Source: a virus
Lineage: Duplodnaviria; Heunggongvirae; Uroviricota; Caudoviricetes
Reading direction: 5' to 3' (one strand)
DNA: 23,009 bases
Virus record (IMG/VR): IMGVR_UViG_3300024333_000003
Below the pieces are notes generated by a model that did not search any database, was not told the DNA's origin, and was given only the letters and a program-made list of their open reading frames with translations. A program made the position numbers and the translations under genes. How positions within the stretch are numbered: the first letter of the stretch is position 1; each line of letters opens with the position of its first letter. Shown one piece after another: positions 1 through 19,191 of this stretch.

Positions 1-3000
1 ATGGATCAATAGTCATAGCCAGACCATTATATGTGTAAATCTTTAGGCCATTATAAGTGGCTGTATATTTTTCAAAGTAAACATCAGAAGCACCTACATA
101 GATATTCCCATCTACAAGTAAGTTGTTATCAGCTACATCTGATGTACCTCCTACATGTAATCCTTTACTAATGGATAATGAATTTGTGTTTCCAGTAAGT
201 ACATTAGTATTGGGTAAAGTTATAGTTCCTGTAAAGTTCGCAGAACTTGAAATAGTCTGTCCGTTAATAGTGCTTGCTACTGCTAAAGTGCCAGTAAAAC
301 TGGCAGAACTTGAAATAGTTTGTCCATTTACTGTTCCACATTGAAATGCTGCTGCCGTCTTTAATACCGCTGCACTATCTCTATATAGCCAAACGTCGAT
401 AGGATCACCAGTACCTTCACCAAATCCTATTCCCTTTTTATTAAAAGAAGGGCCAGCATAAATTCCTATGTAGTATAGACAATAGTTAGCATTTTGACTT
501 GTTCCAGAATAAGATATTATATCACCACCACCATAAAGTACCATTAGACATGTATTACTACCATTTAATAAAAAAGTAACATTCTCTGCTGTTACTGAAA
601 CGTCTCCTCCTTGTCCAGTGGAAGATGCATACAAACCTCCAACATTAAGAGTTCCACCAGAAATTGTTCCACCAGAAATTGTTCCACCAGTAATTGTTGC
701 AGTTGAAGTAAAACTGCCTACTAACCGCATCACATTATTAGAAGTATCATAACCTATATAAACAGAACCATCACCTTTACCAACATAAAAATAGGTATTA
801 TTAGCTCCTATAGTTCCCCACGGCATTGTTACATTTCCGGTGGTTTTAGCTGCGGCAAAAACTGGATACGCCTCAGACTCCCAAGATGCACAGAAACCAT
901 ATCCATTTTTCCAATCAGGTGTAGAACCCCAATAGTTTCTGCCCACAAAAGCCCACATCCATTGTGAATTTATATACTTGCCTACATACATAGAAGGATT
1001 GGTTGAATTGGCTAGTAGATTCAAGTATACATTATTTGAGTCATTGTATGTTAGAGCATCAGAACCAATAACCCAACTCGCTATTCGTGCCGTGAGTACT
1101 CCTGTAGATAAATTTTTAGAGAATTGAACATAGGGAGTGCTGGTATAATCTGGAGATAATGAGAATCCAAATTCATTCTGCCAATCACTGCTATAATACA
1201 GAAGCCCTACATTAACACCTATCTTAGAACTTGTATTCCTCATAAACAACGATGAAGCTACTGAGTTAGCAATAGAATATAATGTAGAGTAATTATCACC
1301 TGATGTTTTATATAAAGCAGAATCTGTAAAATTCCAACCGGCAATCTGATACTGACGAGTTGTCATTTCAAATACTGGGGCTGTATTATAGTCGGCAGCT
1401 AAAGTAAATCCAAATTCATCACGCATACTTGATTCACGATAAACATTTCCAATACAAATAAACGGACCTGATGAACCGCCACGCATAATAATTGAAGGCT
1501 TAGTATAAGCGCCGCTGAATTGGGTCGCATCCGAGAGAATATAAACATAATCTTGACCGTGATCATGCCACAAAGCTTTATTATTAAATCGCCAGCCCGC
1601 AATATGCGCTCTAAATGAAGAACTATTATCATTCTTATCACACGATATCTCAAATAAGTTGCCAAGATTCCATTGAACAAATTGAATCCCATAACGTACA
1701 TTATTTCCTGTTGCCGTCCATTTAGATACCCCACTCCAAGTGCCTCCGGGATCAACATCTGCTACCCGTCCAACAAATAATTTAAAAGTATCAGAACCGC
1801 CATTATGATTACCTATTGTCAAACCCGCCGTATAATCTCTCGCTGCATAATCTTCAAATCTACCTGCTTTTGAAGCTAAACGAACTCCAGTTCCTTGCCA
1901 GTATTTTTCATCTACTGCATCAGATAAGGAATCTTTAGCAAAAACCGTAGGGTCGAAAGACCAACCGGCAATATGACTTGTATTAGTGGCATCAGCAGTT
2001 AAGAAAAACAATTCATTTCCAGAAGCATCATAAGCATTTATACCAAATTTGGTAGACCAACCCCATGCTGTTGTTAATATTCGACCAACCGTTATTCGAG
2101 CAACACTTGTTGTTGAATAAGCAGCACCGTTAACAATAGTTAAAGCAGCGCCACCAGCATCTTGATAAAGTGCCACAGATTGTGTTCGACTATCACCAGC
2201 ATTTTTATAAAAAGCGTATTGATTTATTCCCCAATTGGCAATATGAGCTGTTCCACCGGAATCAACACGCATTATAGATGTTCCAGATGAATTTAATAGC
2301 TCAAAACCAACAACATCACTACCAGAATCAAAAGCTTTAAGAGAACCAAGACGTAAATTCCATCTTGATCCATCATGAAATCCTAAATAGGTTATAGTTC
2401 CAATAACGCCCATCTCCATCAGAACGCCAGAAGAACCTCTTAGCCAAAAAATTGGTCTTGATCCATTATCCCAAAATCCGAATCCGGCAGAGTTATTAGC
2501 TTCTCCTATACCGGCACTAAGATAATTACCTATTTGAAGAATAGACCCTAATGTCATTCTATTTGCATCAAAACTAAATCCAGAAATTGTTGCTGTCCCA
2601 CTTGTAGGTAAATAGAAATTTTTTGTTGTTCCAGAACCAGTATATCCAGATATGCCGGATGAATTAATAACAACGGCTTGATAACCATCAACGGTATAAC
2701 GTCCAATGTATGTTCCTGCTGCTGCAATAGCTGTTGATGTTCCAGCATCAAGAACTCTCATCCCAGCAGAAGATAGAGATATTGTTGGATTTTGAATACT
2801 TCCACCAAATCCTCCTGCTATTGCCCACATACCGTAACCTGACCCAGTATTACTTCCATCTGTTTTTTGATAAACAGTAGTTATACTACCGCTTTCAACT
2901 TGCAATCCCCAGAAGGCAAGTTTCTTAGTTGCTCCACCACTATGACGCAATACCCAGTCCATCCCCGACTGATAACCAGTAAAACTTGTTCTTACAACAC

Positions 3001-6000
3001 TTAATCGTGTCCAAGTATCAGCGTAGATAGTTCCAAACACTCCCCAAATATCGCTATTAACTGTACCGTTTGTATCAGTCCAAACCCAAACCGATGTAGT
3101 GTATGTTCCACTGGATAACGCTCCGGTCAAATTCAGATAATACCATAAATCAGTTGCATCATCAGATTTATGATATAATACTGTACTTCCATCTGGCGCA
3201 GTTACATTACCAGTAATATCTGTACCGACACCACCACCAGATCGCCCATAAAAACAATCATCGGATACACCTGTAAGTAAGTTAGTATGTATCTTACCAA
3301 CGTAGAAAGTATTACCTATGGTAGAACCTCCACCTACAGCAAGTGTTCCAACAATATTTGCATTACCTTCCGCATACAAATCTCTTGTATAAACTCCAAA
3401 CGTGCTTGATGCTAATGCTCCATATGTTAGTGTATTGACTCCACTTAAATCGCCAATTTGAGAACGAGTTATTAAATCGGTCTGTGGAGCAGTCGTCCAT
3501 GTCGCTATGCGATCATACGGACGATTACCTACTTCATTCAGCGCACATCTTTCTAAAATACCGTTCCCCGATACTCCATAGTCTAAAGCAATAGTTCCTT
3601 TTGTATAAGTAGTAGATGTACCAGACTGTTTTGTATATGTGTAACGCTGATATTTATTTGTGGTATCTCTATCATAATATGTTACAGTCAACCACGCTTC
3701 AGTAATATCCAAATGAAACGCGCCCATCGAAATATTCTTAATGCGAACATAATCTCCGTCAGCAAAAACCTGACCTGTATAGCCAGTGATTTCTTCTACA
3801 TACAAATAAGTATCAGTACCACATACAAAATCTTGATATAATTTAGCAGCAGATTTACAAATAATTTGTCCACCAACTAATGCTTGTTCAATATCAGTAA
3901 TAAATGATTTTGCATGCATCTCATTGACAGTTAGTTTTCCAAACACAGAGCCAACTTGTGTTAAATAATATCCAGTATATGGATCACTTACAGAATAGGT
4001 AGTTGAATAGATAGCTTTTGCGTTTGCCATTATTACATTGCCAGCAAATGTAGCAGAGTCGTCACTTTCTAAAATACGTAGTGCTTCAACACCGGCAACT
4101 GTAACAGCAAATCTTGCCCCTCCACTTGTTTCTCTTGATATATACGTATTTGTCCCAACACCAAGCATGTATCCTTTACCCGTAGCAATAGTCACATTTC
4201 CATTGGACAAAGTAAGATTACTTGGAACTACCACATTCCCAGAATTGTCAATCGTGATTGAATTAGCTAAAGCATAATTATCGCCGCCCAGATACAAATA
4301 GCTGTCTGTACGCTTTAAGACTCCTATAAATGCTGCTGATGTATTTGATTGAGGTGCTATGACACATATATTATTTGGTATAACAATTTCATTACCTTGA
4401 AATTGACCGCTTGTGTAAGAAGTTAAATTAACTCCAATAGCAACGGCTCTTGTTGCTTCACAAGTGCCTAATTGCAATACTCGATAAGCACCACTATAAC
4501 CAAAATAAGAATCTGTTATGTATAATGGTGTTGACCCTATACCAACACCGAGCGTACTCTTATTTAATCTAAGTGCATAGCCAACGCCATACGAATAAAA
4601 CCCCAAATCATTTGTTGTCTCAATTAAATTAACATCCCAAACCACTGAATCAGATCGTTTTATCCTAAATGGTGTCTGACTTCCAGCAGCAGTAATATTT
4701 ACAATTAGTCCATAATAATCATAATTGGTTGTTATATAACCATTCGTTAAAGTAATGTTATTTGCAAATGTAACAGCGTTAGTAGTCTTATCAAAAATTA
4801 CTGTATTTGTACCACTTTCGTTGTAAATATACAAATTACTATTACTAAGCTCTCTTTGACCAACAAACCATTCTCCGGCTCCATTAGTTCGATAAGATAG
4901 TCCGAGATAGTTTGTGTTTGCAGGACGATTTAAAACAAAATATTTATTGGTAATTGGCTGTAAATATATGTTCTCCTTGAACATCCAAGAACTATTGCTA
5001 ATGTGAGCTGAATAGCCATAACTTGTATGCTCAACATAATATTCACCAACGGGAGTAGTTTTGGAATTATTAATAGTTGGATTTACTGTAAAACAATTTA
5101 ATAACCTCCAATTTATATTTACTCCGTAAGTTACTGGATTTAGTTTAACGTAAACAGACTTTGCTCCTCCATTTACTCCCTCCAAACGCACAGCCAACAG
5201 TCGAGGATTGTAAGAATGATGCTCAATTTCCAACATAGGAGAATACGAATCAGGAGTATAATATGTTGTCATTACTTTTATTTCAAAAGGCTGCTCATTG
5301 TCTGTAGAACTAATATATCCTTTAACAGTAGCATAACCATATTCACCTCCAAATGTGAATAATTTTAGCCAGACAGGATCGCTACCCGCTTCCCAACTTT
5401 CTGTGTAAGTCGTTGAATTGTACATTCCGTTGCTTATTACAGCATTAGCAAATGTAGCTACATGATCAGCTCCAAGCGTTAATGTTAAAGCATCATCAGA
5501 GCCGTAAAATGCCGACCAGCCATCATCGCGCACAAGAAATCGTGTACTTCCACTTGAGTTGGATGCTTCAAAACTGTATGTACTCGAACTTGTTCCAGTA
5601 CCACGAACAGATAATCTACCATTACCTATTACTGGAATGCCTACAAATCCATTTTTATCTATTAACAATCTTACTAAATCAGGCGCACTTAATCCTTGTG
5701 ATGATTCTGTCCTGATTGCGAAATCACCATAAGCGTATTGATCGTTACCTAACCACCAACGTCTTGAGTCAGATGCTCCAGATTTATAATCCCAAGCCAC
5801 ATATTTACCATCTGTAGCGCTTGGTAATGTTATAGATGTAAATGGAGTTGCTGTTTCAACACCGATATAACCATTGCGCTGGGTTATTCCAGCGTGCCAA
5901 GAGCTACCATACCAATCATATAGCGTCCATGCAGAATTACTTAGAGGATTAAGGGCGAATGCTGGGGTAGAAGAATTATAAGCTACCCCCAATCCTGTAG

Positions 6001-9000
6001 ATTGCGAACCTGCTACAATTGTAAATCGTGAAGTATAATATCCATTTATGGTTGGATCATTCCCTCCAACAACCACAGATCCAATTGAAGAAGCCAAAAC
6101 TACAGCACCCTGAGAAGAAGGATTGCCTGTAGTCGTCGTACCATCAGCAAAACTCGGTGTTATAAAATTACCTAAATGAACAGCAGTACTTGTAAAATCA
6201 TATGAAACTGTTAATTTAGACCCAGAATCAAATAAACCATTATTCTGGTAAACCTTAACCTTCATCACTAAGGTTGATGAAGAAGCGGTATCAACATCTA
6301 AAGTGATCGAATTAGATACCCCTTCTTCATAATCCGACGCAATATACGCCGTCATATTATATTCACCACCTGCATACCAATCTCTTACTCTTACAGTATA
6401 TCTGCGAACCAAAAAAACAGGATTGGCATTACCTGTCTCCATTCCAGAAAAAACTAAAGTAACTGTTCCAAATAAAACCCCAGACTTGTATCCTGTATCT
6501 GGATTAGTAAACTGGAGAACTTTGCGAATTTGGGAATCCTCTGTATAGCTAAAAACTTGAGAACCAGAAAAACGCTTACTTAATGAAGGCGTACCAGAAA
6601 CAAACTCAATACTACCGATATTGCTCAAATCAATAACAGTTTCAGAACCAGAAGTATTTCTTGTAGCCCATGTAACCCAATCTGATTCGGCTTTATTTAG
6701 AACTCTTATATTACTTTGATGGAGTAAGACCCCCGAAGTTCTTAGATCTCCTATCGTTATCCAACTACCAAAAAGATACCCACCATAACCGCTGCCTTGA
6801 TTACAACGGACACTCCAACCACTCTGATCGTTTAACAAACCAATTCCAGAAGAATCCCAATATAAATATCCTTTAATAGTGCTATCGTGATTCGTCCTCA
6901 TTCTAATACCGCCAGAAGTAGGACTTCCTCCAGAAGAAATGTTCCAAAAGTTTAGACCGTCACAATACCAATGCGTAGTTTGAACTTCATTATATAATCC
7001 TGTTTTATTAGTCGTAACGTAAAACCAGTCGTCGGTAGAAACTATACTTGTAAAATAGGCCCGCATACTTTCATGAACATAAAATGGTCGCTGCCAACTA
7101 CCTCCAACAGCACGACGGTAAAGATTCATTTTATCACCACTTACGTGCCACATCCAACCAACGTTAGACTGATCTGTTTCACAGAATGCTAATGTAGGCG
7201 CGTCACCTACAAGTTTAATTCCTCCACCCCAACCTTCAGGATTTGAACTGGTATCAAACCAATTTTGATATATCTGCAATTTGCTATTATAGTCAGTGGC
7301 AAGATTACCACCAAGAATAATAGAACCTCCAGAAGTGGCATTTAATATTAATGGCAAAGTTGAATAAGAGGCGAGTTCGGCGTACTTAAATGTCTTACCA
7401 GCATTGGTAATATAAATATTAAAATTCATATCGACGCCATTTGTTATATCAACTAATCTGTTAGCACTTGACCCCTCAGTCGTATCAAATATACTCAAAC
7501 TCGAATATCCGGCATTTGCAAAAACACCTTGCTTGCTAATTGATACTTCACCATAATGGTTAATCTGCATGTGAGCTATAGCACCAACAGCCCAATTATT
7601 CGATGTGGCAAAATACATCTTGCTACCATAAGTACCACTTGATTGCACATATATACCGGCATGTGTTTTGTCAGCGTAACTGGGATTCGGAATACCCCAA
7701 GTTATACCTTGTGAATAATCATAATAGCTGACATCATTAGTAGGCTCAAAATGCAATCCACATTGCGAAGTCAATCCGGGAGTGGGATAACTAATATTAA
7801 TTGGAACTTTATCAATTGTAATATTACCGCTACTCGTTATAGCACCAGAATTAATTGTTGATGCAAATGTAGCATTGCGTGACGTATCAAAACTTAATGC
7901 TGCTGCCCCCTCATAATACAGACGAAAAGTATCACCTGTTATTTCGATATAAGCCGACCTGGCAGTTGAACCAGTTTTATTGAAGTAAACGTACGGATTA
8001 GATGCATTTTGTGTAATTAATACAGATCCCTGTATTGTGCCCAAATTAGAAAAATTACCTGTTGTAATATCCCAATAACTTAACCAATAGCTATTTGAAT
8101 GATTATAAAAGCCAATTAGACTTGATGTAGATGTCCCTGAATTTATTATATCTACTTGCTTTCCATCTGTGTTTGATGCAGTAAAACGCAGATAACGATT
8201 ATCAACAGAGTTGTCTTTAACAATTTCAATTCCTGGACTTGTTGAAGTAGTAACAGTGAGTTTCCCACTACTCATTATAGCACCTACTGTAAAGCTACCA
8301 GTACCTATACTAAAGTTTGCTCCTAAAGTAGGAGCCGTTTGTGAGCCCTTAGCAACATGTGCTCTGGTTCCTAACGCCCATTTGGTATTAGTAGTATCCC
8401 AGTATATTAATCTATTTGTTCCGCCGGTTCCACTATCGATTTCGAATCCAGCATAATTAGGAATTGCTGCGTCATTATTAACTACTTGAAATGGATTAGC
8501 AATGATAACTGTACCATAATTAGTCCAGGTTCCATATGAAATAAATGAATTATAAACGGTCAGTGAGTCTATTTCGGCGGTAAATCCTTTTAATTCCGCC
8601 ACACCAGACCCAAATTTTAAATACTGACTTTCACTATTTACTACATATAATCCTTTAGCGTTTAATTCAGAAAATGGTGTAGTCGATTTAATTTCGATAT
8701 CATCTATATACAAACCTACTTGATTATTACCAGATATCGTTATTGTTATATCGCTATCAGTTTGCGGTGTAAAAGTCGCTACAAATTCAGACCAGTCATA
8801 AAGACCGCCCTGACCAGAATCATAATTTAAAAGTTCATGTTCAGTATCATCATAATTTGCATATACTCCTACAGTGCCTTCCATAGGCCAATACCAAAGT
8901 GTAATTGAAGTAGAATGTCCTGGAACGGCTGCACCAAGATTTTTTGAGGTCCAACACATCCAATCACGTTCAGACGCACCTGTTCCCAAAAAACTATAAG

Positions 9001-12000
9001 TGCCGGTATGTGCTTTAGATGTAGATCGAGCAAATCCAGTACTTGTACTCCAACCATTTGCACTAGATTCAAAATCAGTAGTATCTAATCCACTGGAAGT
9101 AATTGAGCGCCATGATGTATTTCCAGTCATATATGTGATTGGTATACTATTAATATCGTTTATATACAAACCATAACTATCAATAAGTACTTTAGCTGTA
9201 GCATAACTTGTACCGCCAAATCCTCCTACTGTTCCCCATAGTCCGTATGTGTTAGTTGTTAAATATCCTAAACGTGCTTTCTCTGAAGAACTGTATTCGG
9301 CCATTACATAAGGATGACTATCAGCTACACTCATAATAACACCGGTACCAGAACTAATATTTTCAATTGTATTAGCATTGATTGTCCAGCCACCGACAGT
9401 TATAACTCCAGCAGATGTCCATGCGATATTACTACTTGCCAAATATCCAGAACCATTTGTTGCTAATGAAATACGAGTATAATCATTTCCACCAGAACGA
9501 TAAAGCAGTCGAACACCGTTTGTTGAATCTACAGTAACAAATGAGTATGAATTGGCGTATTTACCGGCAGCGAAGCCATAAACGTTTGACGAATAACCGT
9601 ATATGCCATTTAAATTACCAATTGCCCAATGTTCAGTCCAAGCATTATAAGTTACATCATTATCACGGACATTTCCAACGATCGTAGGTCCATATTGTGC
9701 CGCACTTTTAACACTACGCAACGAATATAAATCGATAAAACCATCTCCTGTGACCCCAGTATTAAATATTGCGTCGCCGGCGTACCATGCATGAGCTGCA
9801 TGTTCTTCGATGTTTCTATCCACTACGTATGTGTAAGGTCCTACTCCTGATGGACCGGATTCAATTTTCATAAATTCAATTACTGCATTTGCTTCTAAAT
9901 ATACAATATCACCAACAACCAAATTATTATGTTTTGTATATATTGTAGTGGCAGATTCGCTTGCAGCCAAATCCGACGTTAGTACTGTGGTAGGTCCTAC
10001 CAATACGCGGCCGCCAATTGTTGCTAATGTATCTTGTGCTACTAATGTCTCAACTATAAGTTCAGCGGCATGTAAGGTAAGATATTTTTTACTTAATGAA
10101 CCAAGATTTAAATCGTAATTACTTGCGGGTAAAATATCATTTCCGGTAGGATCAAGTATTATATCTCCGCCAGGAGCGATGTTTAAATTTACCCCTGTGT
10201 CTGTATAAAGATTACCACCCTTAACATATAAATTACCAGTTAATGAGGCACCAGCGCTAAATTCTACTAATCCAGAACTACCGGTTAATGTATTCGAGTT
10301 GGGCAATGTTAATGTGCTGCTTAGTGTTAAGGCGTCTGAAATCGTTTGTCCACCACGTCCGGCAAGATACAAATATTGTGTATGATCATCACCTGTTGTT
10401 AAATTCGATAATGCGTGGTGATCTGTAGCTATATAATTCGATGTCGGCAACGGAGTAACTGCGCGGTAATCTGCCGCTTCGATATACGTTGGAGGGCTTC
10501 CAGTATTACGATAAATTATTCGATACAATAATTTCATCTCTGCTACCGGTAATGTATCGTATATTAGATTTTCGGGAACATTGTTTGCGCGTGCATTTGC
10601 TATATTAGCATCGACTCTTTGTCCCATCAACACCATAATAGGATAAGATGTATTATTCGACGCAAATACCCAGTAGGCCACATAATTATTCGCCGGCACA
10701 GCTGTTAGTGTTGTGCTATTATTATATTGAATATTACTACTTACTTCATAATAAGGAACGGCCGATCCTGCTATTGACTTGTAGGCTGAGGATCCATCGT
10801 GATATAATACCATACATGAAGTTTGTTGCGTAATTTCATGTTCAATATCTTCATCATATATTTCTCCCGCAGCAATCGTAATACTGCTATTACCAAATGT
10901 ACCTGCTAAACCAGATGCATAACGAGTTCCTACAGTTTCATGTAAGTATTCATGCGTCCATTGATCGCGCCCCATCCAGTGACGTTCGTCTGAAAGTATT
11001 CCTACACCAGTAGTTGAATTCCAATAAACACCGGCTACTAAGCATTGATCGAAACCAGGATATGAACTGCTTGCAGTTAATGTGGGTACATTATCAACTA
11101 AACTATAATATATCCAGTAAAAATTAGTTGAATCTGTAATTGTTACATATGATGTATTTAATGTATATTCAGAACCGTTCAGATAAACTTTAAAATTTGT
11201 ACCTGTAATAGTCATACGACGGTTTGTATTATTAAATGACAATGCTGTATCAGCACGATTTGGAAATCCTGTATAGTGCTTAGTCGTTGTAAACAATGTA
11301 GGTAGTTTTACTGATGTGCCTAATGTTAACGCAACAAAAGTCGGTGAACTAGATGATAATACCGGATTCGCGCCTTCGACTACTGATACATTATTTATTT
11401 TGTAAGTTTTGCCTGATGCGAGATTCCAGTGTTCAGTTGATGTCCAATTAGTGTTTGACAGATCCCATAAGATAGTCTTATCAGTAGTGCCCTTCAAAAT
11501 AATACCACCACCGTCTGCCAATGCATCGGTTGGATTTGTACTAACAGCCATTGAAATTTGCTTGTCGGCTACTTTAAGAACTGAAATATCTACTTCATCA
11601 ATATCCCCAGTTAAATATATATTTCCGGCAATGTATATATCTCTTCCAATATGTACATCACGTGGTCGTCCGGTGTTTATACTTCCAATATCATATGTCG
11701 CGTCAGTCTCATAATTGAAACTTGCCCCACCGTGCAATATTACTCCGTTTTTAGTTATTCCGGTCTGCCCACCTGCACCAGTTCCAGTTCGTTTTGCAAC
11801 TATCCACGCTGAATCTCCAGATGAATATGTTAGTAATTGATTATCACCGCTAGTGTTATCTACTTCAATTCCACCATAACTTGGTAATGCGGCATTATAA
11901 TTCAAGACCTGTATCGGAGCTGAAATAACTACTGAACCATATTGATGCCAAGTACCATACTGATTAAAATTACCATAGATGGTTAAGTCTTCTACTTCAA

Positions 12001-13639
12001 AACCACTTCCTTTTATCTCTGCTATTCCCTTGCCGAATTTGATATATGAATTTGCATTGTTTACAAGGAAGAGTCCTGCTGCGCTTAACTCCGAAAACGA
12101 CGACGAATATTCCAGACGTACTGTTGAGAGATAATATTCATACACAACTGTGCCTGATATAGTAACAGTAATTATACCATTAGTGGTAGTGGTGAAAGTT
12201 TTTTGCCACGTACTATTTGTATATGGAGGAACGGTTACAGTATAATCGGTATAACTTCCGCTATGTGCAATGCGAATAGTAATATCTGAAGGAGCATTAG
12301 CGCAATTATGTTCTATTCTTAAAGTATAAGTTTTATTTGCAACTCCGGCCCCTAAACTTTTATAAGTTGATTTTCCAGACCCCGCTGTTGCTTTAATATA
12401 GTTAGTTATCCAAGAGAAGCCATTTGTCACATCCCAACCTTCTGCGCTGGAAGCAAAGGTAGCGTTTTCTACAACTGTCGTATCAATAGAACGCCAATCA
12501 GTATCACCAGTAATATATGTTATGGGGGCGCTATAGTCATCATTAATATATAGTCCAGAGCTATTAATAAATACTTTTGCGTTATCATACGATGTGCCGC
12601 CAAATCCACCAACAGTTGCCCAAATACCATTTACATCACTAGATAGATAACCCATTCTAGCATATTCGGTGACACCGTTACCAACACCTATGTATGGAGT
12701 ATTTGTACCAACCACCTCTATCTTGCTTCCTGAAACTTCGCGTACTAGGCTGGTTTCGGTAATTGCCCATCCGCCGATCTTTGCATAGATATCTGTCAAT
12801 GTTCCAACAGTTTGACCATCATTATATAACGCTACCACTGTCTGACCGAGTTCATCAATTCCTCGGATACTTGCAGTATCGATTATGAAACCAGAAGCAC
12901 CACCATCAGAGATGCTAATCCCTTTTTCGACCCGAATACGTCCGGCATCGATTTCGTCGGCCGCTAAACGACTTGTAATTTTTATTTTGAGATTAGAATT
13001 ACCAACATGTGCACCAATGATCTTTACTTTATAAGCAGCACTTATCAATGATGTTGTAAGATCATATATAATAGTTTCACCAACAGCAAGATTACATGGA
13101 TCGGCCGGTGTGGCATTCCAGTCAGTTAAGTTGTATGCGGTGTCAAAATCCGGCGTTGTAATAATTGGATTTTTATGTTGTTGTATTAATGTTATTTCAA
13201 GCCCAGATACAGTTGCAGTACCCACATTTGATATGGATACTCGTGTGGCATTTATAGCAACAGCATACTCTACTAATACAGTTGAATCATCAATAATAGT
13301 AATAGTTTCACGTAACAATCCTTGTATATCGGCTGGTTGTATAGGATCAAGCATATCATCCCCCATTATGTCGATCCATTCCCAATCGCCATTTGGTGTC
13401 ATCGCTTGAATCATTCCGCTACCAATAAATTTTATATGATACCGTCCGGATGGAATTTCACTTTCGTCTTTCGTTATACTCCAGTAACCATCTTCATCTG
13501 TTGTGGTATAACCAATGATTTCTTGTGTATCTGCTCGTAGTAATTGAATATAGACACCAATTACTGGATTTCCGTTGGTATGGAATTTTTTGCCTTCAAT
13601 TGTTATTCGATGATTTTCTATTTTGTAAGATGTTGCCAT
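1..13639 (-). CDS. Giant tail fibre / adhesin-like virion protein, at least 4,546 aa, 3' end outside the window (partial)
   Basis: ATG at 13639-13637 (MATSYKIENHRITIEGKKFHTNGNPVIG...) is preceded by GAGG and lies 9 nt after the stop of the upstream gene. By-eye reading of the frame (plus-strand triplets starting at 2, 5, 8...) found no tta/cta/tca triplet down to position 2, where it ends ...NGLAMTIDP. The ORF track lists no long minus ORF here, as expected for an ORF lacking a stop in the window. The protein is rich in Gly/Ser/Thr/Asn/aromatics, with fibre-like motifs (IGGW, ATFA, DHHALSNLTTGDDHTQY, GGGIILKGTTDKTILW), and lies directly downstream of baseplate genes. Confidence 0.92.
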   Translation of the reverse strand, partial: MATSYKIENHRITIEGKKFHTNGNPVIGVYIQLLRADTQEIIGYTTTDEDGYWSITKDESEIPSGRYHIKFIGSGMIQAMTPNGDWEWIDIMGDDMLDPIQPADIQGLLRETITIIDDSTVLVEYAVAINATRVSISNVGTATVSGLEITLIQQHKNPIITTPDFDTAYNLTDWNATPADPCNLAVGETIIYDLTTSLISAAYKVKIIGAHVGNSNLKIKITSRLAADEIDAGRIRVEKGISISDGGASGFIIDTASIRGIDELGQTVVALYNDGQTVGTLTDIYAKIGGWAITETSLVREVSGSKIEVVGTNTPYIGVGNGVTEYARMGYLSSDVNGIWATVGGFGGTSYDNAKVFINSSGLYINDDYSAPITYITGDTDWRSIDTTVVENATFASSAEGWDVTNGFSWITNYIKATAGSGKSTYKSLGAGVANKTYTLRIEHNCANAPSDITIRIAHSGSYTDYTVTVPPYTNSTWQKTFTTTTNGIITVTISGTVVYEYYLSTVRLEYSSSFSELSAAGLFLVNNANSYIKFGKGIAEIKGSGFEVEDLTIYGNFNQYGTWHQYGSVVISAPIQVLNYNAALPSYGGIEVDNTSGDNQLLTYSSGDSAWIVAKRTGTGAGGQTGITKNGVILHGGASFNYETDATYDIGSINTGRPRDVHIGRDIYIAGNIYLTGDIDEVDISVLKVADKQISMAVSTNPTDALADGGGIILKGTTDKTILWDLSNTNWTSTEHWNLASGKTYKINNVSVVEGANPVLSSSSPTFVALTLGTSVKLPTLFTTTKHYTGFPNRADTALSFNNTNRRMTITGTNFKVYLNGSEYTLNTSYVTITDSTNFYWIYYSLVDNVPTLTASSSYPGFDQCLVAGVYWNSTTGVGILSDERHWMGRDQWTHEYLHETVGTRYASGLAGTFGNSSITIAAGEIYDEDIEHEITQQTSCMVLYHDGSSAYKSIAGSAVPYYEVSSNIQYNNSTTLTAVPANNYVAYWVFASNNTSYPIMVLMGQRVDANIANARANNVPENLIYDTLPVAEMKLLYRIIYRNTGSPPTYIEAADYRAVTPLPTSNYIATDHHALSNLTTGDDHTQYLYLAGRGGQTISDALTLSSTLTLPNSNTLTGSSGLVEFSAGASLTGNLYVKGGNLYTDTGVNLNIAPGGDIILDPTGNDILPASNYDLNLGSLSKKYLTLHAAELIVETLVAQDTLATIGGRVLVGPTTVLTSDLAASESATTIYTKHNNLVVGDIVYLEANAVIEFMKIESGPSGVGPYTYVVDRNIEEHAAHAWYAGDAIFNTGVTGDGFIDLYSLRSVKSAAQYGPTIVGNVRDNDVTYNAWTEHWAIGNLNGIYGYSSNVYGFAAGKYANSYSFVTVDSTNGVRLLYRSGGNDYTRISLATNGSGYLASSNIAWTSAGVITVGGWTINANTIENISSGTGVIMSVADSHPYVMAEYSSSEKARLGYLTTNTYGLWGTVGGFGGTSYATAKVLIDSYGLYINDINSIPITYMTGNTSWRSITSSGLDTTDFESSANGWSTSTGFARSTSKAHTGTYSFLGTGASERDWMCWTSKNLGAAVPGHSTSITLWYWPMEGTVGVYANYDDTEHELLNYDSGQGGLYDWSEFVATFTPQTDSDITITISGNNQVGLYIDDIEIKSTTPFSELNAKGLYVVNSESQYLKFGSGVAELKGFTAEIDSLTVYNSFISYGTWTNYGTVIIANPFQVVNNDAAIPNYAGFEIDSGTGGTNRLIYWDTTNTKWALGTRAHVAKGSQTAPTLGANFSIGTGSFTVGAIMSSGKLTVTTSTSPGIEIVKDNSVDNRYLRFTASNTDGKQVDIINSGTSTSSLIGFYNHSNSYWLSYWDITTGNFSNLGTIQGSVLITQNASNPYVYFNKTGSTARSAYIEITGDTFRLYYEGAAALSFDTSRNATFASTINSGAITSSGNITIDKVPINISYPTPGLTSQCGLHFEPTNDVSYYDYSQGITWGIPNPSYADKTHAGIYVQSSGTYGSKMYFATSNNWAVGAIAHMQINHYGEVSISKQGVFANAGYSSLSIFDTTEGSSANRLVDITNGVDMNFNIYITNAGKTFKYAELASYSTLPLILNATSGGSIILGGNLATDYNSKLQIYQNWFDTSSNPEGWGGGIKLVGDAPTLAFCETDQSNVGWMWHVSGDKMNLYRRAVGGSWQRPFYVHESMRAYFTSIVSTDDWFYVTTNKTGLYNEVQTTHWYCDGLNFWNISSGGSPTSGGIRMRTNHDSTIKGYLYWDSSGIGLLNDQSGWSVRCNQGSGYGGYLFGSWITIGDLRTSGVLLHQSNIRVLNKAESDWVTWATRNTSGSETVIDLSNIGSIEFVSGTPSLSKRFSGSQVFSYTEDSQIRKVLQFTNPDTGYKSGVLFGTVTLVFSGMETGNANPVFLVRRYTVRVRDWYAGGEYNMTAYIASDYEEGVSNSITLDVDTASSSTLVMKVKVYQNNGLFDSGSKLTVSYDFTSTAVHLGNFITPSFADGTTTTGNPSSQGAVVLASSIGSVVVGGNDPTINGYYTSRFTIVAGSQSTGLGVAYNSSTPAFALNPLSNSAWTLYDWYGSSWHAGITQRNGYIGVETATPFTSITLPSATDGKYVAWDYKSGASDSRRWWLGNDQYAYGDFAIRTESSQGLSAPDLVRLLIDKNGFVGIPVIGNGRLSVRGTGTSSSTYSFEASNSSGSTRFLVRDDGWSAFYGSDDALTLTLGADHVATFANAVISNGMYNSTTYTESWEAGSDPVWLKLFTFGGEYGYATVKGYISSTDNEQPFEIKVMTTYYTPDSYSPMLEIEHHSYNPRLLAVRLEGVNGGAKSVYVKLNPVTYGVNINWRLLNCFTVNPTINNSKTTPVGEYYVEHTSYGYSAHISNSSWMFKENIYLQPITNKYFVLNRPANTNYLGLSYRTNGAGEWFVGQRELSNSNLYIYNESGTNTVIFDKTTNAVTFANNITLTNGYITTNYDYYGLIVNITAAGSQTPFRIKRSDSVVWDVNLIETTNDLGFYSYGVGYALRLNKSTLGVGIGSTPLYITDSYFGYSGAYRVLQLGTCEATRAVAIGVNLTSYTSGQFQGNEIVIPNNICVIAPQSNTSAAFIGVLKRTDSYLYLGGDNYALANSITIDNSGNVVVPSNLTLSNGNVTIATGKGYMLGVGTNTYISRETSGGARFAVTVAGVEALRILESDDSATFAGNVIMANAKAIYSTTYSVSDPYTGYYLTQVGSVFGKLTVNEMHAKSFITDIEQALVGGQIICKSAAKLYQDFVCGTDTYLYVEEITGYTGQVFADGDYVRIKNISMGAFHLDITEAWLTVTYYDRDTTNKYQRYTYTKQSGTSTTYTKGTIALDYGVSGNGILERCALNEVGNRPYDRIATWTTAPQTDLITRSQIGDLSGVNTLTYGALASSTFGVYTRDLYAEGNANIVGTLAVGGGSTIGNTFYVGKIHTNLLTGVSDDCFYGRSGGGVGTDITGNVTAPDGSTVLYHKSDDATDLWYYLNLTGALSSGTYTTSVWVWTDTNGTVNSDIWGVFGTIYADTWTRLSVVRTSFTGYQSGMDWVLRHSGGATKKLAFWGLQVESGSITTVYQKTDGSNTGSGYGMWAIAGGFGGSIQNPTISLSSAGMRVLDAGTSTAIAAAGTYIGRYTVDGYQAVVINSSGISGYTGSGTTKNFYLPTSGTATISGFSFDANRMTLGSILQIGNYLSAGIGEANNSAGFGFWDNGSRPIFWLRGSSGVLMEMGVIGTITYLGFHDGSRWNLRLGSLKAFDSGSDVVGFELLNSSGTSIMRVDSGGTAHIANWGINQYAFYKNAGDSRTQSVALYQDAGGAALTIVNGAAYSTTSVARITVGRILTTAWGWSTKFGINAYDASGNELFFLTADATNTSHIAGWSFDPTVFAKDSLSDAVDEKYWQGTGVRLASKAGRFEDYAARDYTAGLTIGNHNGGSDTFKLFVGRVADVDPGGTWSGVSKWTATGNNVRYGIQFVQWNLGNLFEISCDKNDNSSSFRAHIAGWRFNNKALWHDHGQDYVYILSDATQFSGAYTKPSIIMRGGSSGPFICIGNVYRESSMRDEFGFTLAADYNTAPVFEMTTRQYQIAGWNFTDSALYKTSGDNYSTLYSIANSVASSLFMRNTSSKIGVNVGLLYYSSDWQNEFGFSLSPDYTSTPYVQFSKNLSTGVLTARIASWVIGSDALTYNDSNNVYLNLLANSTNPSMYVGKYINSQWMWAFVGRNYWGSTPDWKNGYGFCASWESEAYPVFAAAKTTGNVTMPWGTIGANNTYFYVGKGDGSVYIGYDTSNNVMRLVGSFTSTATITGGTISGGTISGGTLNVGGLYASSTGQGGDVSVTAENVTFLLNGSNTCLMVLYGGGDIISYSGTSQNANYCLYYIGIYAGPSFNKKGIGFGEGTGDPIDVWLYRDSAAVLKTAAAFQCGTVNGQTISSSASFTGTLAVASTINGQTISSSANFTGTITLPNTNVLTGNTNSLSISKGLHVGGTSDVADNNLLVDGNIYVGASDVYFEKYTATYNGLKIYTYNGLAMTIDP
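224..334. repeat. 63-nt-period direct repeat x2, encoding NGQTISSSA(S/N)FTGT
   Basis: An identical 17-nt core, gcagaacttgaaatagt, occurs at 240-256 and 303-319 with similar flanks. Confidence 0.9.
651..695. repeat. 15-nt tandem repeat x3 (gttccaccag[a/t]aatt), encoding ITGGTISGGTISGGT on the minus strand
   Basis: Directly visible: units at 651-665, 666-680 and 681-695 (one mismatch in the third). Confidence 0.95.
830..2595 (-). repeat. Six degenerate tandem ~87-123-aa repeats in the giant ORF, each starting with an I(A/S)(G/N/S)(W/F) motif
   Basis: ISGFSF (~2590), IANWGI (~2237), IAGWSF (~1972), IAGWRF (~1602), IAGWNF (~1345), IASWVI (~1082). Each is followed later by a (V/I/L)G(R/N/L/S) strand and a (F/Y/V)G(F/I) strand. 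Confidence 0.8.
8363..9397 (-). repeat. Internal protein-level duplication, copy 2 (giant ORF aa ~1415-1759)
   Basis: VGGW...ARLGYL...GLWGTVGGFGGTSYATAKVLIDSYGLYIND..SIPITYMTGNTSWRSI...[insert]...FSELNAKGLYVVNSESQYLKFGSGVAELKG...YGTWTNYGTVIIANPFQVVN..AAIPNYAGFEID aligns by eye with copy 1. Confidence 0.9.
11789..12778 (-). repeat. Internal protein-level duplication, copy 1 (giant ORF aa ~288-617)
   Basis: IGGW...ARMGYL...GIWATVGGFGGTSYDNAKVFINSSGLYIND..SAPITYITGDTDWRSI...[insert]...FSELSAAGLFLVNNANSYIKFGKGIAEIKG...YGTWHQYGSVVISAPIQVLN..AALPSYGGIEVD aligns by eye with copy 2. Confidence 0.9.
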
Positions 13640-13644
13640 TTAAA

Positions 13645-13648
13645 CCTC
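13645..13648 (-). promoter_or_regulatory. Shine-Dalgarno-like GAGG for the giant ORF
   Basis: Minus strand reads TAA-GAGG-TTTAA-ATG. Confidence 0.7.
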
Positions 13649-16519
13649 TTAATTTAGTGCCGGTCGCCCAAATATCACTATAGTTCCTGTTACTCCTGAA
13701 TAATTATCTGGATCTGTTCCATCATCATAAAGATCCACAATTATGTTACGGTCTCCATAATCTTCTTTTATAACAACGTCGCTAGTTTGTACGAAACCTA
13801 CGTCGCTCCCGGTAATCAGCAGTGAATCTGCCAGCGCTTTACCAGTTACTCCTTCTTGATACCAACGCATACGACATTTGCGTCCAACAAGAACATCACA
13901 ATCAAAATATGCTTTGGTTATTTCGTAATCAATTAATAACCCTTTCGCCACGTACACAGTTCGGCCGCGTTCTGTTGTACCAATACGGAATATACTATTT
14001 ACCGTAGGATCGGCGGTAGACCCGTTCATCGCACGTAACACCATAGTAGTGCCTTGATCATTTTGATCTAAAATATCCGCTACTATATATGTTCGTCCTG
14101 ACGTTTCATCCGAAAATACCTCGCCTATTATTTCTCTGGTCAATACCGTTCTAGATGTATTCGTGTCCCTTGTCCATGTGCCGGTTACATTATCTATATG
14201 AAAATATCCTGATTGCCCGCCCGTAGCGTAAATCACTAAATAGATAGTTTTTCCAACTGTCCCTGTCGGTATTGATGCAGAAATTGTTTTTGTCGTCTTC
14301 GCAGAGAAATTTGCTGGTATTGTGCCTTGATATAAATTTGTTGCCGCGCAAGGCGCAGCAGTGCCTGCAATAGATTGTCGCAACATTACTCCCAAAGTAT
14401 GTTGTGGCGTCGAGCCTTCATATGATACCTCAAAACTCATCTCAATCGAACTAACTCCTGACGGTATTACAAATTCCTGACATATTGCAGCCTGCATTGG
14501 ATCGGCAGTGCTATTTACACCCATTTTTACGTGACCGCCGGTAATACCACCCCAGTCTGCTGCGTTCACCCATGCTGTATTTCCATGACCGCTGGTCATA
14601 TCATATCCAAAGAAGTTTGTCCATCCAGCAATGTTGGAACCGAACGTACCGTTTACTACTGATACACTTTCAGATACTAATCCACTATAGGCAGGAGTAA
14701 CTACATCTTTAACTCTGACCACACTATAGTGTTCGCTCCCACCACCGTAACCAGTACCGCCATAAATCGTAGCATCTATGATACCCTGAAACGTTCGAAA
14801 GTTAATAGGTGTTTGCACTATAATACTATCATTAGGTGCAGCACCACCTCCGCCTGATACTACAGTAGTAGATAGTCCGGTCGATACTGCAACTTGTCCG
14901 CCTACTAATGGTCTAACAGTGATTCCATAAGTATATCTACCGGGGGTAGAAATTTCTACTTCAGTGTGATTAGTCACCACACGTTGATAATTTGGTGTAG
15001 TTAAATTTACACCACCTGTTGCCGATGTGTACAACACTTCATATGCGGTTGCTAGAGTCCAACCAGCTGAACTGGTGGTACCAGGATTTATAGCAACTTT
15101 AAAGCCTGCGTATGTAGGAGTGGCAGTAACAGATGCATTAGAATTATTCAATAATGCAATTTTTGTTATATATGGAATTGTGTAACTAACCACACCAGAA
15201 TTTTCATATTTTAAAGGCTCCTCTTCTTTAGTATAAGAACAGTTGGAGTTTAATTGTTGATACGCCGATTTCATAAACTGCGTACAACTTCTAACGGATA
15301 TGGAATATTTTTGTCCTAACGGTAAATCAACTGTCGCCTCCGGAAATACAACTAAATTACCATTAACATCTGTAATTGTATATTTTATCGACCATTCTCG
15401 AATCTGCTGTCGATCTTGTTGTCCAGTATCATATGGTATTGCAACAATCTCATAAAATTCTGCATCATCGTGTATCGTGACAGTACCAGCTAAATTTTCT
15501 GATGGGGTACTACCATCTAAATTACGTATCGTAATTGTATATGTATTAGTAGCGTATGAACTAACTGTTATTTCATAGTCTTTGTTCCATGTATGATGAT
15601 ATAAGTGCAATCCTACCAATGCATTTGCAGCCGAATAAGGAACTGTTGATATATATGATAACTGTGGAATAGTCAGTATACCACCACCGCCGCCGTCAGT
15701 TGCTGTGGCATTTACTATACCCCAAGCTAATTTTACTGTAACGTTAGTACTAGCCATTGCTTTCTTTGTATCTATTGGCAAAAATGCGTCCATAGTAGTG
15801 TCTATGTGCTCAATTATTTCTGCCGGTAAAACGTCCTTAATTACAAATAATTCTGGTTTGGTCGGAGCTGTACCTTCAGTCAATACCTCTGAGCCCCCAA
15901 CTTTTAAAGATGTGGTAACTGTAACAGGACCGCTTATTGTTTGTCTGTCAGTAAAATCTGTACGTACGACATAACCTGGTAACGGATCAGTTTTTAATAC
16001 GAATAAATTCTCATCCCTTCGGTCATCTATAGCCGTTACTACTACGCCGGAAACTGTAATATCTGCTATTAATAATCCAGATGTTACCGTATCCCAAGCG
16101 AAATCATATCCATCAATTTCTCTGGTTGGTGTTAAGTTTTCTCCCGCAGTATATTTAAAACCATTCATCACCGCAGTATATCCAGAATTATCTGGACTGC
16201 TATAAATGTATAACGTATGCACACCGTTGGTGCCGGGTAGAGCAAACGTTTGTGGCGACTCAACATCTAAGAACTCGAGATTCTCGGTCAAGGCCGTACC
16301 TGCGGCTATATTTATAAACCCAGGTGTTGTGTAAGATGCCTTTAACGTGGTATCAGCTGCAGCAACCGTACCATCTTGTGCACGTTCGGCTATAATACCA
16401 AAAGTCTCTATAAATGCTCCTAATGAATTGGCTATACCATTTTTTATATAAGTTTGTAAATCAGTAAATAATTGTTCTAAATTATGACGTGCACCATTTT
16501 TTGCTAATACTTTATTCAT
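13649..16519 (-). CDS. Putative baseplate-proximal tail fibre/adaptor protein (956 aa) with FN3/Ig-like domains and a CBM4/9-like domain
   Basis: Long ORF with a GAGGA RBS. The N-terminus (INIAAGTALTENLEFL) resembles baseplate-attachment domains. It has two FN3-like patterns (LPLGQKYSISVRS; AYEVLY...TPGRYTYGITVRP) and a jelly-roll-like segment VVNGTFGSNIAGW...AICQEFVIP...FHIDNV at about 14175-14660. It sits between the wedge genes and the giant fibre. Confidence 0.75.
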   Translation of the reverse strand: MNKVLAKNGARHNLEQLFTDLQTYIKNGIANSLGAFIETFGIIAERAQDGTVAAADTTLKASYTTPGFINIAAGTALTENLEFLDVESPQTFALPGTNGVHTLYIYSSPDNSGYTAVMNGFKYTAGENLTPTREIDGYDFAWDTVTSGLLIADITVSGVVVTAIDDRRDENLFVLKTDPLPGYVVRTDFTDRQTISGPVTVTTSLKVGGSEVLTEGTAPTKPELFVIKDVLPAEIIEHIDTTMDAFLPIDTKKAMASTNVTVKLAWGIVNATATDGGGGGILTIPQLSYISTVPYSAANALVGLHLYHHTWNKDYEITVSSYATNTYTITIRNLDGSTPSENLAGTVTIHDDAEFYEIVAIPYDTGQQDRQQIREWSIKYTITDVNGNLVVFPEATVDLPLGQKYSISVRSCTQFMKSAYQQLNSNCSYTKEEEPLKYENSGVVSYTIPYITKIALLNNSNASVTATPTYAGFKVAINPGTTSSAGWTLATAYEVLYTSATGGVNLTTPNYQRVVTNHTEVEISTPGRYTYGITVRPLVGGQVAVSTGLSTTVVSGGGGAAPNDSIIVQTPINFRTFQGIIDATIYGGTGYGGGSEHYSVVRVKDVVTPAYSGLVSESVSVVNGTFGSNIAGWTNFFGYDMTSGHGNTAWVNAADWGGITGGHVKMGVNSTADPMQAAICQEFVIPSGVSSIEMSFEVSYEGSTPQHTLGVMLRQSIAGTAAPCAATNLYQGTIPANFSAKTTKTISASIPTGTVGKTIYLVIYATGGQSGYFHIDNVTGTWTRDTNTSRTVLTREIIGEVFSDETSGRTYIVADILDQNDQGTTMVLRAMNGSTADPTVNSIFRIGTTERGRTVYVAKGLLIDYEITKAYFDCDVLVGRKCRMRWYQEGVTGKALADSLLITGSDVGFVQTSDVVIKEDYGDRNIIVDLYDDGTDPDNYSGVTGTIVIFGRPALN

Positions 16520-16520
16520 A

Positions 16521-19189: not shown

Positions 19190-19191
19190 AT

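Follow-up and report, generated by a model that had tools for sequence, protein, structure and literature searches.

In this study, we analysed a window of 23,009 nucleotides, which corresponds to positions 62995-86003 of the 215,016-bp virus record IMGVR_UViG_3300024333_000003 (Caudoviricetes), a record that is 100% complete according to the CheckV estimate. The minus strand of this window holds a giant open reading frame (ORF). It belongs to an uncultured lake-water phage with a genome of 215 kb and, as we consider likely, encodes the tail (receptor-binding) fibre in one chain of 4,936 residues. The first-pass annotation, made from the window alone, had described a frame that is open from an ATG at 13639 to the window edge, is preceded by a ribosome-binding site and codes for at least 4,546 aa. 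An ORF listing with open ends allowed agrees with this description: the frame lies at 2..13639, starts with ATG, contains no internal stop and is open at its 3' end, and the 4,546 residues cover window positions 1..13639. In the full record, the frame extends 1,172 nt past window position 1 to a TAA codon at genome positions 61823-61825, which adds 390 aa to the minimum and gives a product of 4,936 aa and 531 kDa with an isoelectric point of 5.0. A Shine-Dalgarno sequence, AAGAGG (13645..13650, minus strand), is located 5 nt before the ATG (13639-13637) and overlaps the TAA codon (13651-13649) of the upstream 956-aa gene, which argues for translational coupling within the tail operon. With a stop probability of 0.0715 per codon, as given by the base composition of the strand, the chance of 4,936 open codons is about 1e-159, and the other two frames on the same strand contain 347 and 512 stops. 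A codon-usage score trained on the other genes of the phage was best for frame 0 in 16/16 windows of 300 codons, and the GC content is even along the window. The giant gene is real. Stop-codon recoding as a cause of the long frame was rejected, as the ORF ends with TAA followed by ATA AAA TGA, so that a TGA codon stands three codons on and no recoding is needed.

The block of genes around the giant is encoded entirely on the minus strand. In transcription order, it starts with a 923-aa ORF (no PHROG match) and ORFs of 790, 328, 236, 635 and 184 aa, which are followed by a 450-aa Baseplate_J/gp6-like wedge protein (Pfam 31.3 bits; phrog_6 E 7e-20), by ORFs of 547, 342 and 956 aa and then by the giant itself. 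The baseplate genes directly upstream in the operon of the giant (13649..20544, minus strand), namely those coding for the 956-aa (13649-16519), 342-aa, 547-aa and 450-aa wedge proteins (19192-20544), are all conserved at the syntenic loci of relatives. Downstream of the giant, ORFs of 76, 129 and 240 aa precede a holin gene, two small ORFs, an amidase/endolysin gene, two further ORFs and the portal gene. The baseplate operon ends with the giant, and the lysis cassette comes after it; the end of the baseplate block before lysis is the classical place of a tail-fibre gene. The 76-aa ORF (genome 61587-61817, minus strand) starts 8 nt past the stop codon of the giant and has no homologue at the relatives' loci.

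Two features had been envisaged for the true C-terminus of the protein, a Peptidase_S74 chaperone and a variable region of a diversity-generating retroelement (DGR); the former is present, and no signature of the latter was found. Peptidase_S74 (PF13884) matches residues 4828-4882 over profile positions 1-57 of 58, with 25.6 bits for the whole protein, 29.4 bits for a piece of it and 33.2 bits in the genome scan (cut-off 22), and this is the only S74 domain in the whole genome. The domain starts with a Ser-x4-Lys dyad, S4828/K4833, in the sequence SSLRYK, in which position 2 is Ser and not Asp. The same spacing is found in the reference dyads of endoNF (S911/K916) and MyRF (S587/K592) (PMC8326128) and in the SDxxxK motif of the mosaic adhesive trimer (MAT) fibres of Bdellovibrio (PMC10769870). 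The dyad region is followed by a heptad-like tail, which is predicted to form a helical coiled coil. Going by these sequence features, we assign the last 109 residues to a Peptidase_S74 intramolecular-chaperone domain with a Ser-Lys dyad. Upstream of this domain, a perfect 168-bp direct repeat is present in frame (genome 62953-63120 and 62461-62628, 492 nt apart; part of one copy at window 1..126, minus strand), embedded in a duplicated shaft module (residues 4472-4617 and 4636-4787, 67% identical). In the diverged flanks, 18/26 differences are at third codon positions and they are not adenine-specific, and blastn of the ORF against the whole genome returned two internal repeat pairs only. A DGR target was therefore rejected, with no template repeat elsewhere in the genome and no adenine bias. 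The absence of a further genome copy and the third-position differences point instead to an ordinary in-gene duplication or gene conversion, and the perfect repeat within diverged flanks suggests that this event was recent.

The N-terminus connects the protein with fibre genes in the same genomic context in other phages. Contigs of six relatives carry the same baseplate module with homologues of the 635-, 184-, 450-, 547-, 342- and 956-aa genes at 23-59% identity, and six proteins have residues 1-617 in common with the giant at 36-45% identity. The N-terminal anchor (residues 1-290; 12770..13639, minus strand) recurs with 36-54% identity in every relative found; the comparison covers residues 1-300 or 1-617 of the fibre genes in L007, L008, L014, L016, L017, L019 and L023, whose flanking genes are homologous. 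This conservation marks the first ~290 residues as the N-terminus that fibres have in this phage group, and they are presumed to be the baseplate-docking part. Within the anchor, residues 13-84 (13388-13603) give consistent sub-threshold matches to the transthyretin clan (CarboxypepD_reg/SdrD_B/SpaA). AlphaFold2 (AF2) predicts a transthyretin/macroglobulin (MG)-like beta sandwich for this part, with a predicted local distance difference test (pLDDT) score of 76-93, and its comparison with alpha-2-macroglobulin MG1 gave a Z of 8.5 (VIA).

Between these conserved flanks, the fibre slot of the relatives is filled by one to four fibre genes. L007 and L008 possess one complete gene each (985 and 1,075 aa, respectively), genes for 763 and at least 877 aa are found in L019, and the slot of L017/L018 codes for 760, 55, 1,489 and at least 487 aa. 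The 66-kb contig L023 encodes proteins of 732, 54, 1,525, 773 and 1,973 aa, the last with Peptidase_S74. The four fibre genes of L023 (g732, g1525, g773 and g1973) sum to 5,003 aa, compared with 4,936 aa for the giant, and are bracketed by homologues of the 956-aa and 129-aa neighbours of the giant. Downstream of g1973 lie a Hint-domain gene, the homologue of the 129-aa gene (66% identity) and an amidase gene; the Hint/intein-like gene (394 aa, L023:18243-19427) directly follows the last fibre gene. In L007, a block of methyltransferase and glycosyltransferase genes (L007:12958-20833) stands after the fibre gene instead of the lysis genes. The small ORF of 54-55 aa between fibre genes 1 and 2 (L017:8285-8452, L018:7708-7875, L023:5171-5335), which may encode an assembly factor for the joint, has no homologue in the genome of the giant.

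The first ~1,800 residues of the giant are colinear with the first two fibre genes of L023. Residues 3-629 of g732 correspond to giant residues 4-617 (36% identity), and residues 113-220, 366-693 and 1162-1391 of g1525 correspond to giant residues 664-774 (49%), 1069-1405 (53%) and 1643-1802 (26%), respectively. At the other end, g1973 1802-1971 matches giant residues 4750-4924 (25%). Residues 618-663 (11651..11788, minus strand) mark the place where homology with gene 1 of the relatives (732-763 aa) gives way to homology with gene 2 (1489-1525 aa). Here, 46 residues stand in place of the last ~100 aa of gene 1 and the first ~112 aa of gene 2. The sequence of this junction is confirmed in runs X1, X2 and X7. 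Within L023, g1525 and g1973 have a common N-terminal module (67% identity), which corresponds to residues 648-775 of the giant, and g732 and g1525 have a common C-terminal domain of ~70 aa. Such a pattern is expected if the C-terminal domain of each segment holds the N-terminus of the next one, and these paralogous terminal domains are putative non-covalent joints, which would be gone from the first junction of the giant. The gene breaks in L023 are real, with TAA stops and with differing frames or several intervening stops, and a hairpin-containing spacer separates g1525 and g773. Recoding as a cause of the relatives' gene breaks was rejected, as the reading frame from g732 to g1525 is interrupted by several stop codons, which are not all of one kind. 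The giant represents the single-gene state of a fibre locus that is undergoing fusion or fission and module exchange. The first-pass annotation had proposed a single-chain megafibre of strung-together segments, and this is borne out more literally than it was meant, since the relatives encode homologous segments on separate genes.

Behind the anchor, the giant carries a duplicated scaffold, module A, which starts with GGWAI in its first copy (residues 288-641; 11717..12778, minus strand) and contains an insert that is hypervariable among orthologues (alignment A4). Copy 2 (residues 1415-1783; 8291..9397, minus strand) is 39-41% identical to copy 1 and has a different insert. AF2 was run on residues 1-660 with 9 sequences (mean pLDDT 62) and predicts a jelly roll of the carbohydrate-binding module (CBM) type at residues 385-512 (12104-12487). 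On this part of the model, which has a pLDDT of 50-64, comparisons with CBM4/6/16/22/35, CBA120 TSP4 and the Kp7 fibre gave Z values of 8.5-10.1 (VIA). The CBM_4_9 hidden Markov model (HMM) matches 2/9 aligned relatives (best E 8.3e-8) and has no match in the giant at E<=1. The several sugar-binding-like domains that had been read from the window are thus supported in part, by the predicted jelly roll and the matches in the relatives. On this model, a CBM-like sugar-binding domain in the giant is plausible but not established.

The next module, residues 648-775 (11315..11698, minus strand), matches phrog_30158, phrog_6002 (virion structural protein) and Synechococcus-phage proteins and is found near the N-terminus of two L023 fibre genes (g1525 113-220, g1973 88-214). 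It is followed by a widespread uncatalogued fibre module at residues 780-1090 (10370..11302, minus strand), which was delineated with HMMER, alignments A1/A2 and AF2 and has no match in Pfam or PHROGs. When residues 1-1200 were used as the query of an exhaustive HMMER search, 4,698 cluster representatives were obtained at E<1e-3. Among the 150 matches listed, nearly all are to the 780-1090 module, at 40-54% identity; in these (143/150 are carriers), the module lies near the N-terminus 54 times, internally 85 times and at the C-terminus 7 times, and the median size of the proteins carrying it is 921 aa, the largest having 3,677 aa. Residues Y872, E885, H887, H900, D929, G1006, R1059 and H1074 are invariant in both alignments (45 and 113 sequences), D931, D1057 and H1086 show no variation among the 45 sequences and very little among the 113, and R886, D892, H896 and E930 are nearly invariant in both; alignment A2 was too diverse for a pattern search. 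The invariant cluster of His, Asp, Glu and Arg residues could form a metal site or an active site.

With the 113-sequence alignment, AF2 modelled residues 790-1060 with a pLDDT of ~97. The N-terminal half of the module (residues 783-897) has the fold of the receptor-binding protein (RBP) shoulder, Mtd_N and the N-terminal part of TssK, with 91-102 residues aligned at a root-mean-square deviation of 2.9-3.7 Å. The matches comprise the tail fibre of cyanophage A-1(L), the RBPs of the lactococcal phages p2 and 1358, the HFTV1 fibre, Mtd and TssK, with VIA Z values of 8.2 (8kec_A), 7.2 (2wzp_A), 7.0 (4l92_A), 6.7 (1yu0_A) and 6.0-6.2 (TssK). For the C-terminal half, no clear solved fold was found (VIA Z <= 3.6). 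The module has neighbours in BFVD, AFDB and the ESM Atlas that come from Uroviricota and are proteins with an S74 domain, of the Mtd type or with fibre repeats. A Foldseek search of the PDB with the model of residues 650-1160 gave weak matches only, the best one to the phi812 baseplate (E 1.3e-4, TM 0.23), and a scan of genome contigs for the module found 5 contigs of metagenome-assembled genomes (MAGs) only and no host clue.

A second widespread module, residues 1133-1380 (9500..10243, minus strand), is marked by the motifs NYDLNLG and DGFIDLY. It is 53% identical to the relatives' gene 2 and 44-67% identical in 43 IMG/VR contigs, where it lies at varying depth in ORFs of 407-2,541 aa, and is not in Pfam or PHROGs. 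Towards the C-terminus, residues 3800-4271 (827..2242, minus strand) form an array of five units with I(A)(G/N/S)W starts and a period of ~86-123 aa; units 4012-4183 and 4098-4271 are 31% identical, and the GGW-x-I start of the module A copies is similar to the I-A-(G/N/S)-W motif of the array. In addition, a shaft motif of ~50 aa occurs three times, at residues 1096-1147, 4460-4510 and 4623-4674. The giant is the longest of ~190 related fibre proteins found, followed by P0130 (3,677 aa), in which the 780-1090 module occurs four times and S74 forms the end, and P0035 (3,330 aa), which is encoded just after Baseplate_J and has in common with the giant the transthyretin-like N-terminus and the modules at giant residues 665-754, 784-1130 and 3388-3691. 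Both proteins are at least 1,250 aa shorter than the giant and only mosaically related to it, and neither is orthologous along its length.

The assignment as a tail fibre, which the first-pass annotation had also favoured, is supported by the position of the gene, the C-terminal S74 domain, the orthologous N-termini in syntenic baseplate modules and the RBP fold matches. All matches with an informative annotation are phage proteins of the tail, of fibres or of the virion structure, which further supports this assignment. In phage databases, the matches to the S74 end are mostly annotated as minor tail or tail proteins, and the others are a Salinibacter phage 'structural protein' and hypothetical or unannotated proteins. 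A match in S-CAM7 is to an unannotated 748-aa protein among replication genes and is uninformative. The composition of the protein is fibre-like, with 39% Gly, Ser, Thr and Asn and few charged residues. Searches with the whole protein returned S74 only in Pfam and nothing in PHROGs, and phmmer against PDB sequences gave only noise (E ~0.8). No matches were obtained in a word-index homologue search among proteins of 2,715-8,638 aa with the whole length or residues 4440-4936, a method of low sensitivity. Searches for related loci with single proteins (the giant N-terminus, the 956-aa neighbour and Baseplate_J) found nothing, and no loci were found in IMG/VR with the N-terminal alignment A4 as query. 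Protein-atlas feature searches provided leads only (viral hypothetical proteins, CBM_4_9/PTR, Mtd_N and T4_gp9_10_N).

A virion fibre other than a baseplate tail fibre, such as a neck appendage, a whisker or a head fibre, is an alternative that we consider unlikely. S74 domains are not confined to tail fibres and are also present in neck appendages of the GA-1/phi29 type (PMC8326128), jumbo phages with head or sheath fibres have been described (PMC7824862), and no sheath gene was recognised, as Phage_sheath_1 and Phage_sheath_1C (PF04984 and PF17482) have no match in the whole 215-kb genome. However, the giant is located directly behind the baseplate genes, is translationally coupled to them and precedes the lysis genes as in the relatives, the mosaic relative P0035 likewise stands just after Baseplate_J, and the fold matches are to baseplate-attached RBPs and TssK. 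As a sheath match is absent, we do not claim that the tail is contractile; although the wedge gene is of the Baseplate_J type, the genome codes either for a highly divergent sheath or for a non-contractile tail.

Going beyond the assignment as a tail fibre, we tentatively propose that the protein is a natural end-to-end covalent fusion of a four-protein fibre, in which peptide links stand in for the non-covalent joints and a single chaperone serves a trimer of ~1.56 MDa and ~200-250 nm with several receptor-binding modules along its shaft; we regard this as possible rather than probable. As to the mechanism of the tail fibre, three chains would associate via the C-terminal chaperone, which would nucleate folding of the upstream trimeric shaft. 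In the next step, the chaperone would cleave itself off before S4828, resulting in a mature fibre of 4,827 residues with a mass of 518 kDa per chain and ~1.56 MDa per trimer. Cleavage uncovers a binding cleft in S74 fibres (PMC10769870), and it would here expose the fibre tip. The N-terminal anchor would dock at the edge of the baseplate, where its probable partner is the protein encoded by the adjacent upstream gene of 956 aa. Candidate ligand-binding modules on the shaft would be two CBM-like jelly rolls in the duplicated scaffold, at residues 385-512 and, as a paralogue of these, near 1520-1650, together with the Mtd/RBP-shoulder-type module, the five I-A-G-W units and the tip adjoining the cleavage site. 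With several candidate binding modules on one shaft, one fibre could contact several surface structures. The T4 long tail fibre measures ~145 nm for ~2,900 residues, and a fibre as extended as this one would reach roughly 200-250 nm. That such a length might help the phage to get through a capsule, sheath or S-layer, as the first-pass annotation had suggested, is speculative. In evolutionary terms, the giant would be a covalent single-gene version of a segmented fibre, with the joint-like domains absent at the first junction.

Several observations weigh against the reading as a single-chain tail fibre, in addition to the missing sheath match, which counts against it with regard to the tail type. 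To our knowledge, there is no precedent for a single C-terminal chaperone that folds ~4,800 residues. The middle of the giant has no counterpart in the four-gene relative L023, and for g773 (L023:10001-12322) and most of g1973 no counterpart was detectable in the giant. Residues 1803-3790 (2270..8233, minus strand), a Gly/Ser/Thr/Asn-rich region of ~2,000 aa, have no family match and match only locally, with residues 3092-3433 resembling a structural protein of a Salinibacter phage, residues 3391-3626 a faecal phage and residues 3388-3691 P0035. A complex prediction with three copies each of the g732 C-terminus and the g1525 N-terminus scored 0.26 against a mark of 0.34 and speaks neither for nor against binding. 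The sequence of the giant was found in no RNA run in the sequence-run search. Finally, L014, the closest relative by identity of the 956-aa neighbour (51%), has a fibre ORF of at least 1,078 aa, cut by the contig end, in which the anchor is joined to a region like giant residues 1191-1434, and the distant relative L016 has an ORF of at least 1,083 aa, also cut by the contig end, which is colinear with the giant through residue 732. With these partly 'fused' arrangements, the change may have been a fusion or a fission.

The separate genes of the relatives also allow for a polyprotein or multi-product gene, in which the chain is later cut, or translation is initiated internally as well, to give several shorter virion segments homologous to the separate proteins of the relatives. 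This seems improbable to us: the single S74 domain of the ORF and of the genome is at the C-terminus, no other protease motif was detected in the Pfam scan, and the domains that are candidates for the joints of the split fibre are missing from the junction, an absence more in keeping with a covalent link than with re-cutting.

An assembly artefact, that is, a chimeric or collapsed contig that fuses separate genes into one frame, is very improbable. The perfect 168-bp repeat does break short-read unitigs, and its copy number rests on graph logic and depth. However, the sequence of the giant was found in at least 13 lake-water metagenome runs. In the Logan contigs of X1 and X2, L003:5092-18596 (13.5 kb of the ORF) is contained in single unitigs with 0 differences, which include the start of the giant and the module junctions, and run X7, which was not flagged as a possible source, tiles the same region at >=99%. 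The junction matching the gene boundaries of the relatives falls well within the long unitigs. Contig breaks are restricted to the repeat near the 3' end, whose unitig has a depth of 190.8 compared with ~104-117 in the flanks, i.e. about twofold, as expected from two copies. The uniform codon usage and GC content point in the same direction. In run X9, one low-depth contig of 402 nt lacks one base of the ORF at L003:9849 (genome 67849), 45 nt from the contig end; this is probably a unitig-tip error, the alternative being a frameshifted variant in the X9 lake sample.

We give just as little credence to a cellular-type adhesin or a fibre of a contractile injection system, comparable to the Bdellovibrio MAT fibres or the giant surface fibres of the Candidate Phyla Radiation (CPR): a mosaic trimeric-fibre architecture with an S74 end is also seen in MAT fibres (PMC10769870), and a few homologues of the 780-1090 module are in MAG contigs labelled as Patescibacteria and other groups, but the giant is, unlike the cellular MAT and CPR fibres, part of a virus genome rated as 100% complete, adjoined by portal, holin and amidase genes, the contigs of its relatives have the same phage layout, and its Atlas and BFVD neighbours belong to Uroviricota.

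Based on its S74 sequence, the giant can be counted among the phage fibres with an intramolecular chaperone (ICA) domain. Similar to the K1F endoNF, T5 pb1 and K5 lyase proteins, it has a C-terminal S74 domain that carries a Ser-x4-Lys dyad and is followed by a predicted helical coiled coil; the beta shaft upstream is rich in Gly, Ser, Thr and Asn, and a role as a receptor-binding appendage is presumed. In contrast to these proteins, one chaperone would serve ~4,800 residues, and no sequence similarity was found outside S74. T5 pb1 has ~1,400 aa and endoNF ~1,060 aa, so that the giant is ~3.5-5 times longer. The serial arrangement of segments resembles the T4 long tail fibre (gp34, gp35, gp36 and gp37). 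The four-gene version in L023 is similar to its end-to-end trimeric segments, and the giant would be the covalent equivalent of this segmented logic. The four T4 proteins, of which gp34 has 1,289 aa, total ~2,900 aa compared with 4,936 aa for the giant, and T4 uses the separate chaperones gp57A and gp38 and not S74. No homology with the T4 fibre families was detectable, as only gp12-short_mid gave a hit, below threshold (E 0.039, 14.6 bits, cut-off 25), and there was no PHROG match; the giant is not counted among these families.

Residues 783-897 have the same beta-sandwich shoulder fold as siphophage RBPs, BPP-1 Mtd and TssK, but this domain is internal, 780 residues from the N-terminus, and is not a baseplate-docking N-terminus as in the Mtd and RBP shoulders. 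As the giant has no match to the Pfam Mtd_N HMM, the likeness is one of fold and not of family membership; neither a C-type-lectin variable domain nor a DGR template repeat was found. The MAT fibres of Bdellovibrio bacteriovorus are likewise mosaic and trimeric, with shaft repeats, diverse binding domains and, in many cases, an autoproteolytic S74 end (PMC10769870). They are, however, cellular proteins that carry a signal peptide and, at the N-terminus, a conserved domain rich in beta structure, and the described constructs have ~1,000 aa (PMC10769870), whereas the giant is the product of a phage gene within a baseplate operon and starts with the N-terminus of a phage fibre.

Tail fibres determine the range of cells open to infection by a phage. 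In our literature search, we found no paper describing a phage fibre of this size and nothing pertinent on giant or fused tail fibres. New in this otherwise familiar class of proteins are the size of the giant, the encoding in one gene of a fibre that is segmented elsewhere, with joint domains apparently lost, and two abundant uncatalogued modules. Defining the 780-1090 and 1133-1380 families would improve the annotation of many phage receptor-binding proteins. Taken together, we show that fibre segments move between separate genes and one chain within one phage group, and the comparison of fused and split versions bears on the assembly of segmented fibres and on how far folding by a single C-terminal chaperone can reach. 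Should the proposed covalent fusion be true, nature would have supplied an experiment on the reason for the usual division of long fibres into segments. The giant would then be a multivalent receptor-binding protein of the 'beads on a string' type as well as a source of two very abundant uncatalogued modules.

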